Shown piece after piece: positions 4,387 through 5,774 of a DNA stretch of 64,000 bases (positions are counted from its first letter, which is position 1; each line of letters begins with the position of its first letter). The stretch covers positions 1,760,001 to 1,824,000 of the forward strand of contig OZ253564.1 in NCBI GenBank assembly GCA_965262915.1. The letters are read 5' to 3'. Position numbers and translations under genes: made by a program. The notes beneath the pieces were generated by a model, which was given only the letters and a program-made list of their open reading frames with translations, did no database searches and was not told the origin of the DNA. This stretch comes from Candidatus Spongiisociaceae bacterium (lineage in GTDB: Bacteria; Actinomycetota; Acidimicrobiia; Spongiisociales; Spongiisociaceae).

Positions 4387-5567
4387 GCGCAGGCCATGCC
4401 GTTACCTACCAATGCCTGGCCGCAGACGGCTCGGCCCGGAAGGGCCGTCTGATCACTCCTCACGGCGTGGTCGACACCCCCGCCTTCATGCCGGTCGGGA
4501 CGCGGGCCTCTGTGCGGACCCTCGACTCGCACGACCTCCGCTCCGTCGGCACCCGGATGGTCCTGGCCAACACGTACCACCTGATGCTGCGGCCGGGTAC
4601 GGGACCGATCGCGGCGCTGGGCGGCCTGCACGCTTTCATGGGATGGGACGGTCCCATCCTCACCGACTCGGGGGGTTACCAGGCCTTCTCGCTGGAGGCG
4701 TCGGTCACCGAGGAAGGGTTCGGGTTCCGCTCGGTGTACGACGGGTCCCCAGTATTCCTCACCCCCGAGGACGCCGTGCACCTCCAGGAGGAGCTCGGTC
4801 CCGACATTGCGATGGTGCTCGACGTGTGTATCGGACTCCCGGCCCCCCGAGCCGAGGTGGTCGAGGCGATGGAGCGGACGCTGCGCTGGGCGGAGCGCTC
4901 GATGGATGCCCACCGACGGACCGACCAGGCCCTGTTCGGGATCGTGCAGGGCGGCGCCGACCCCGACCTGCGGCTGGAGAGCGCCCGCCGTACCGCCGAG
5001 CTGGGGATGGCGGGGTACGGGATCGGTGGCCTGTCGGTGGGTGAGAACCTGGGACGGCGCAACGAGGCCGTGGAGGCCGCCGTGGCTGGGCTCCCGCCCG
5101 ATGTGCCCCGGTACTTCATGGGGTTGGGTGACGCGGAGGGGATGCTGGAAGCCGTGGCGAGGGGGGTGGATCTGTTCGACTGCGTGTGGCCCACCCGGCT
5201 GGCCCGCCACGGCAAGGTCATCACCGATCGGGGTGACTACAACATCCGCCTGGCGAGGTTCGTCGAGGATCAGGGTCCGCTCGATCCCGCCTGTTCCTGC
5301 CTGACCTGCCGCACCTACCCGCGCGCCTACCTCCGCCACCTTGCCGTGACCGGGGAGATGTCCTTGCCGAGGCTCCTTTCGATCCACAACCTGATGGCCA
5401 CTCATCGGATCCTCTCCGATGCCCGGTCCGCCATCGATACGGGAACCTTCGACGACTTCCGCCGCCGCCTAACCGGCGCCCGAGCGGAAGGGCGGCCGGG
5501 CGCACAGGCGGTTGGGCGTTCAGGCGGGAGGCCGGATCGCCAAAACCCGGCTCCGCGAGGGGGTTGA
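4383..5567 (+). CDS. tgt: tRNA-guanine transglycosylase
   Basis: [39 protein letters not shown] zinc site. Confidence 0.97.
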
Positions 5568-5592
5568 TCCTGTCACAGTCGGGTGGCACTAT
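5564..5592 (+). promoter_or_regulatory. Promoter-like motif TTGATC-17bp-CACTAT containing TGTCAC
   Basis: Same architecture at 12136-12164 (TTGAAC-CTGTCACA...-GCATACT). Resembles the actinobacterial RecA-NDp/PafBC motif TGTCRG-N10-TAnnnT. Confidence 0.5.
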
Positions 5593-5595
5593 GGG

Positions 5596-5774
5596 TGTAC
5601 CAAGCACCGGGGCGGTGCCGAACCGGACGTCGTTCGACCGCCAGGGATCACGAATTCGCGGGACCGCATAGCCCGGCTGCGAGCGGGCAGAACGCGTTCC
5701 GAGTCCTGGAAGGTGGTGGTGGGGGTGGGCCCGATGCAAGGGTGGGTGGCGGCGTTTTTCACGATCTGGTGGCG
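5596..5774 (+). ncRNA. Candidate structured ncRNA or dispersed repeat, copy A
   Basis: Colinear conserved blocks shared with 12170-12345 at an offset of 6571-6574. Confidence 0.45.

Follow-up and report, generated by a model that had tools for sequence, protein, structure and literature searches.

The window analysed in this study, a stretch of 64,000 nucleotides from a Candidatus Spongiisociaceae genome, contains two related units, which we call A and B. Unit A lies between tgt (4383-5567) and yajC (6128-6436), and unit B lies between relA (9665-11866) and a gene for an MBL-fold hydrolase, which is followed by hisS. Both had been predicted from the letters of the window to be diverged copies of a promoter joined to a structured RNA, and both were found at the predicted positions, where the promoter elements could be read again (Table 1). 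When 5540-5800 and 12112-12372 are aligned with MAFFT, the mean column identity is 75%; all the blocks that the original prediction described as common to A and B are colinear in the alignment, with small indels of 1-2 nt between them. The gaps of this alignment measure 2, 2, 2 and 1 nt and break the reading frame, in agreement with the claim that the two units have no ORF in common. The compensating helices noticed in the two units are real as well and are the helices called P4 and P5 in the covariance model described below: in A, GGGACCGC/GCGTTCC encloses GCCCGG...CGGGC, and in B the corresponding pairing is CGGAGCGC/GCGCTCCG. From its sequence, the RNA of unit A would start near 5597-5599 and end in the T-run. 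The block upstream of unit A, GGCCGGATCGCCAAAAC, is an inverted copy of the block at the 3' end of the unit (GTTTTTCrCGATCTGG), and it is common to most of the copies classified below as type 1, in the form CTCGCGAAAAC.

Table 1. Features of units A and B in the window, with positions counted from its first letter (G000:C1, contig of this genome; R1, covariance model of the RNA)
Feature	Position	Strand	Basis or remark
Unit A, upstream block GGCCGGATCGCCAAAAC	5530-5546	+	Sequence and copy alignments
Unit A, -35-like hexamer TTGATC	5564-5569	+	TTG at this place in 36 of the 47 own full-pattern copies
Unit A, TGTCAC, PafBC-type '-26 element' with GTC triplet	5571-5576	+	Heptamer TGTCACA also upstream of the genome's own recA
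Unit A, -10 hexamer CACTAT, exactly N10 after TGTCAC	5587-5592	+	
Unit A, predicted RNA, about 160 nt	5596-5759	+	Match of model R1 at G000:C1:1765596-1765759, 146.8 bits
Unit A, hairpin P2 (GCGGTGCCGAA / TTCGACCGCC)	5612-5642	+	Covariation
Unit A, palindrome GACGTC in the 10-nt loop of P2	5626-5631		
Unit A, helix P4 (CGCGGGAC.../...GCGTTCCGAG)	5655-5703	+	Covariation
Unit A, variable hairpin P5 (GCCCGGCTGCGAGCGGGC), inside P4	5671-5688	+	Covariation
Unit A, GGTGGTGGT, 3' strand of closing stem P1	5712-5720	+	Partner ACCAAGCACC at 5599-5608
Unit A, G-run GGGGGTGGGCCC, then GC-rich terminator-like hairpin, T-run (5755-5759) and conserved block CACGATCTGG	5721-5769	+	
Unit B, promoter: TTGAAC 12136-12141, TGTCAC 12143-12148, CATACT 12159-12164	12136-12164	+	
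Unit B, predicted RNA	12170-12330	+	Match of model R1 at L058:58-218, 77.3 bits
Unit B, hairpin P2	12185-12215		
Unit B, loop palindrome GACGTC in P2	12199-12204		
Unit B, T-run	12327-12330		
Unit B, conserved block CGCGACCTGG, after the T-run	12331-12340	+	

The units belong to a family that is far larger than these two members. Within the 64 kb of the window, the 14-mer common to both units, TTGAWCCTGTCACA, exceeds chance only weakly: at up to 2 mismatches it has 2 matches where 0.34 are expected from shuffles, and a count of 2 is attained by 7 of 100 shuffles. Genome-wide, it has 11 exact matches and 26 with at most one mismatch, and its reversed control has 0. We searched the 5.05 Mb single-contig genome with BLAST and then with three rounds of nhmmer, and obtained 63 matches, 56 of them near full length and 7 partial, all between long ORFs according to crude gene calls based on GC3. 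The predicted multicopy character is thus correct, and the copy number had been understated. Three subtypes can be distinguished: type 1, to which A and B belong, with 27 copies; type 2, with 25; and type 3, with 4, in which the middle part is longer. Every copy has the same layout. The promoter is followed by a 5' strand, ACCAAACACC or GCCGTAAACACC, whose pairing partner is the invariant GGTGGYGG close to the 3' end; internal hairpins come next, and the 3' part has the run GGGGGNGGGCCC before a GC-rich hairpin, which a T-run and CGCGNYCT follow. The terminator hairpins of type 1 are imperfect. Short tandem repeats (GGCAGGC(G), CTGGCAC and CACCATT) were also observed, which flank some copies (G000:C1:4905560-4905640 and 725290-725360) or occupy the orthologous spacer, as between tgt and yajC in another genome (locus L311, G002).

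Special attention was given to the promoter, since the original prediction had assigned it to the PafBC type. The in-vivo consensus of PafBC-dependent promoters is tGTCgg(N10)tA(N3)T, with a GTC that is strictly conserved at about -26 and without a -35 box (PMC8635444; PMC6789036). The assignment is supported by the spacing in our units, which equals this consensus, by the presence of the same variant before the organism's own recA and repair genes, and by a PafB/PafC-like pair encoded in the genome. Among the 56 near full-length copies, 47, including A and B, match TGTC-N12-NANNNT exactly, and 39 read TGTCACA. Of these 47 copies, 36 have TTG at the -35 position, and in most of the others it is shifted by 1 nt. 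The GTC is kept at the corresponding place in all 20 of the relatives' copies listed, and six of these 20, from another genus, keep TGTCACA and the -10 box and lack TTGA; because of this, we regard the TGTC element as the conserved part of the promoter. Our units thus resemble the PafBC-dependent (RecA-NDp) promoters known from Mycobacterium and other Actinobacteria, whose mode of action is called sigma adaptation, in the GTC element near -26, the N10 spacing and the yA(N3)T -10 box, and differ from those promoters in that a predicted non-coding RNA in about 56 copies stands behind them and in that most copies have an added TTGA at -35 (PMC8635444; PMC6789036). Because TTGA is present in most copies, unlike in the published PafBC promoters, they could be constitutive.

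The same promoter type is found elsewhere in the genome. The pattern TGTCAC[AG]N9[CT]ANNNT has 90 sites, of which 42 lie within the RNA family and 48 outside it; the controls give 5 sites for the reversed pattern and a mean of 12.2 (sd 11.6) for 179 permuted cores. At 10 of the outside sites, an ORF with 70 codons or more starts within 5-9 nt, as in leaderless genes, compared with an average of 0.9 and a maximum of 4 for 60 control cores. Altogether, an ORF lies downstream of 36 of these 48 sites, and the Pfam scan covered 31 such ORFs, all but recA and four of 70-77 aa. Genes of repair and replication are represented by a UvrD/HRDC helicase, a UvrD+PD-(D/E)XK helicase-nuclease (AdnB-like), Lhr, two SSBs, DprA, RmuC and DnaB, and the other families include a DNA methylase, NERD, a SMODS/CD-NTase-like cyclase, a McrB-like AAA_5 ATPase, HicA, TnpB and SMC_N/AAA_21, while 11 of the 31 scanned ORFs gave no Pfam family. 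Since they start 6-8 nt past the -10 box, many of the mobile or defence ORFs look leaderless. In the case of recA (G000:C1:2240100-2240300), TGTCACAG-N8-TACCTT stands about 60 nt before the ORF and adjoins a LexA-type box, CGAACATCTGTTCG; both kinds of site, a LexA-type box and a PafBC-type promoter, have been described for mycobacterial recA. The PafB/PafC-like proteins are encoded by adjacent genes with the Pfam compositions HTH_PafC+WYL+WCX and WYL+WCX, and NCBIfam gave no name to these WYL proteins. Directly beside this gene pair (2441837-2443037) there is a partial copy of the RNA unit, covering model positions 31-148, at G000:C1:2441165-2441291.

The claim that the units encode a structured RNA was examined by means of covariation, and it is supported in two independent sets of sequences, the copies of this genome and those of other genomes. 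Because RNAalifold gave poor structures on mixed or MAFFT alignments, the helices P1-P5 and a short terminator stem were set by hand on 24 type-1 copies, checked, and built into the covariance model R1, which recovers 55 of the 56 own loci. Raw column-pair covariation was also tried and set aside, being swamped by the split into two subfamilies. In the own copies, 83.6% of the cells of paired columns are paired against 75.2% after shuffling, with none of 500 shuffles reaching the observed value, and sliding the partner by 1-3 columns leaves 29-49%; in 44 sequences from other genomes the values are 83.3% against 70.6% (again 0 of 500) and 35-39%, with both alignments behind these counts fitted to the structure of R1. 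In the own alignment, P1 is 92-95% paired and P2 88%, with all nine P2 pairs changing on both sides; P3, P4 and P5 are weaker, at 72-82%. In the 44 foreign sequences, changes on both sides occur in P1, P2, P4 and P5, including 8 of 8 pairs of P4 and 4 of 4 pairs of P5. The counts of G-U against A-C in paired columns are 97:85 and 80:60, so that the covariation fits an RNA of the + strand, an RNA of the opposite strand and DNA hairpins alike; the orientation of the promoter and of the T-run argues for the + strand as the one that would fold. As for resemblance to known RNAs, the original prediction could name none, and the Rfam comparison agrees: the 64-kb window has 0 matches at gathering thresholds, and eight copies compared with Rfam 15 at E up to 5 gave two chance matches to miRNAs (E 0.35-3.2, far below threshold).

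The loop of P2, of about 10 nt, contains a self-complementary stretch of at least 6 nt in 48 of 55 own copies and in 36 of the 44 foreign ones; when the loops are shuffled, the mean and the maximum of this count are 19 and 27 for the own copies and 17.6 and 25 for the foreign copies. The palindromes themselves vary and include GACGUC, GGUACC, CGAUCG, GGCGUC, CUCGAG and CGGCCG. Self-complementarity that is kept while the sequence changes, G-U pairs included, is what would be expected of selection for a loop-loop (kissing) dimer.

A search with R1 shows that the family is multicopy in the relatives too, with many copies per genome. It is present in 15 of the 18 searched genomes of the family of sponge-associated actinobacteria to which the window belongs (Acidimicrobiia; Ca. 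Spongiisociaceae): in four of four genomes of genus g1, nine of nine of g7, two of three of g4 and neither of the two of g3, often with at least 19 scored matches per genome. The other 132 genomes of the order gave five single matches with E from 3e-4 to 9e-4. In a pattern scan of genome records, R1 found 41 solid and three marginal matches among the 80 loci listed; all of the solid matches belong to records of Acidimicrobiia, Candidatus Spongiisocius or Spongiisociaceae or to bins labelled 'bacterium', and the three marginal ones are elsewhere. Viral contigs gave 7 pattern matches and no true member of the family. We found no paper on this RNA in the literature searched on PafBC and on bacteria of the Spongiisocius type, and no non-coding RNA reported among PafBC targets in the PafBC literature searched.

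The units come and go at orthologous loci. Downstream of tgt, a unit is present in 1 of 28 orthologous loci, that of this genome only, and upstream of the hydrolase gene in 2 of 26, those of this genome and of one congener. At the locus of unit B shared by these two species, the similarity begins about 12 nt upstream of the -35 box and extends to TTTTCGCG, and the flanks do not align. The intergenic DNA of relatives does not align at the A and B loci, so that exact borders and target duplications are not readable there. In the case of unit A, translation of tgt stops at the TGA of the -35 box TTGATC, and the native end of the gene seems to have been replaced when the unit was inserted. The last 20-25 codons of tgt (5465-5567 of the window) are unlike those of all relatives and run into the 5' flank of the unit.

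The two main subtypes differ in their surroundings. Type-2 copies are situated inside a repeat of about 390 bp with the ends GTGTCCTGAGTC... and ...GAATCAGGACAC, flanked by TA within CTAG-like sites. These ends are also those of a 1174-bp element of the IS630 family, present in 12 copies (for example, G000:C1:481213-482386), which encodes a DDE_3 (IS630-family) transposase of 368 aa. Since the ends are shared with this element, we conclude that at least the type-2 subfamily moves as the cargo of a transposon; matching terminal repeats, a TA duplication in CTAG and the lack of an ORF, the characteristics of an IS630 miniature element (MITE), are all found in type 2. Around the type-1 copies, A and B included, the flanks show only a 10-nt inverted block, TCGCGAAAAC / GTTTTTCGCGA, and no transposase partner was recognised for them in this genome. 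At six loci of another genus (L115, L117-L120 and L122), a direct repeat of the 3' end of the unit (GGTTTTTTCGCGTTCTCGG) precedes the promoter by about 25 nt; in the type-1 copies of this genome, its counterpart is inverted. A second miniature element, unrelated to the first, was also observed between unit A and yajC, at 5884-6046 of the window; it measures about 165 bp, has the terminal repeats CTAGTGGTCTGTCTGC.../...GCAGACAGACCACTAG, occupies a CTAG site at which congeners have no insertion, has at least 67 near-full copies in the genome and is covered by metatranscriptome contigs at 92-99% likeness.

A search of sequencing runs gave two metatranscriptomes recorded as RNA, four runs guessed to be RNA and six of unrecorded kind, the last with 96% of the words. 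Four runs were examined for contigs. The two sponge metatranscriptomes among them cover yajC of this organism and have no contig on unit A. One contig of 202 nt, from a run of uncertain kind, corresponds to another copy of the unit; as it includes the promoter, it may be DNA. These contigs speak neither for nor against expression of the units.

Taken together, we consider it probable, with room for doubt, that A and B belong to a mobile family of independent small-RNA genes, specific to this lineage. Each unit consists of a promoter that matches the PafBC-dependent type in sequence and spacing, a predicted folded RNA of about 160 nt (P1, P2 with a self-complementary loop of 6-8 nt, and P3-P5) and a GC-rich hairpin with a T-run. 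Single-stranded DNA, arising from DNA damage or perhaps from phage attack, would lead a PafB/PafC-like activator to bring the housekeeping RNA polymerase to the TGTC element, and the RNA could then be produced from about 56 loci simultaneously; in this genome, the added TTGA box probably also gives basal expression. Through their palindromic P2 loops, the RNAs probably pair loop-to-loop into dimers. The genes themselves spread as DNA, one subfamily as the cargo of a miniature transposon with IS630-family ends. For the RNA, we found neither a target nor a partner. It is a long shot that the RNA is an effector or feedback arm of the single-stranded DNA alarm of PafBC, with the dimerising RNA either binding the Sm-like WYL domains of PafBC and turning the response off, or forming an RNA or RNA-protein body for repair or anti-phage action, while transposon spread would raise its dosage.

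The same observations have to be weighed against other explanations. One of them holds that the units are nothing but miniature transposons or dispersed repeats, whose hairpins serve transposition as DNA and whose promoter and terminator parts are incidental or perturb the neighbouring genes. The presence and absence at orthologous loci, the IS630-type element around the type-2 copies, the inverted TCGCGAAAAC / GTTTTTCGCGA pair at the ends of type 1, the G-U and A-C counts, which do not fix the strand, and the two metatranscriptomes that cover yajC without a contig of unit A all fit this explanation. However, terminal repeats suffice for elements of the IS630 type, whereas here the ends differ by subfamily and it is the core of promoter, RNA and terminator that is conserved across subfamilies and genera; the promoter spacing and the compensating helices are kept in copies that are 70-80% alike, and loop palindromes with G-U, such as GGCGUC, preserve the pairing of RNA and not that of DNA. 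For these reasons, we regard a repeat without an RNA gene as unlikely.

The original prediction left the choice between a non-coding RNA and a leader, and our results favour the former. A cis-acting leader, that is, an attenuator or riboswitch that places yajC-secDF (at A) and the MBL hydrolase and hisS (at B) under damage control, is suggested by the co-orientation of the downstream genes at both units and by the terminator-like hairpin at the unit end, which could be read through. Across the family, however, the downstream gene is on the opposite strand in 43 of the 63 copies and co-oriented in 20 (binomial p 0.005, from crude gene calls in which tgt is mis-stranded), and the same genes occur without a unit in the relatives, at 27 of 28 and 24 of 26 loci. 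The antiterminator that such a leader might use would pair the 3' strand of P2 with the terminator. In type 1, cognate partners pair no better than non-cognate ones (-12.8 against -13.0 kcal/mol), in type 2 the signal does not go beyond the level of the subfamily, and the idea was discarded; a leader is very improbable. Smaller still is the chance that we give to a guide or partner RNA of a transposon enzyme, such as the omega RNA of TnpB or the bridge RNA of IS110, or to a gene for a small protein. The unit is indeed multicopy, structured and linked to mobile DNA, and the genome has two tnpB genes (764698 and 2593427), one of which (2593469-2594572) has the same promoter type, but neither tnpB locus adjoins a copy, no omega-RNA family of Rfam matches, and we saw no variable segment free to act as an unpaired guide, P5, the part that varies, being a hairpin. 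Since indels between the copies break the frame and leave no ORF in common, the unit is not protein-coding.

As a family of mobile small-RNA genes, the units can be compared with three known systems. The Correia elements of Neisseria exemplify miniature elements with inverted repeats that bring along promoters, terminators or small RNAs. Our units resemble elements of this kind in being short, non-autonomous, multicopy and intergenic and in having transcription signals, and the likeness to miniature elements extends to the terminal repeats and the TA/CTAG target that type 2 shares with the IS630-family element; they differ in that the internal RNA gene is conserved rather than the ends, that its fold shows covariation, and that type 1 has no recognised transposase partner. 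Qrr and LhrC are sibling (paralogous) families of small RNAs, in which, as here, several diverged copies of one gene each have their own promoter and terminator and share one regulator. In the family described here, by contrast, there are ten times as many copies, the RNA has several helices and a greater length, the gene is mobile, and there is no known target or seed region. Finally, the DIS hairpin of HIV-1 is a site of kissing-loop dimerisation with a loop of about 10 nt and a 6-nt self-complementary sequence, which varies between lineages and yet remains self-complementary, as in P2; the context here is bacterial instead, and the P2 palindrome could alternatively be a protein-binding site.

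These results bear on the biology of the organism and of the family in several ways. About half of the sites of this promoter type in the genome belong to a single RNA family, and the type-2 subfamily is a clear case of an RNA gene, rather than a protein gene, as the cargo of a miniature transposon. With dozens of copies per genome and many genomes, this is a well-populated new RNA family, which is suited to structure determination and to inclusion in Rfam.
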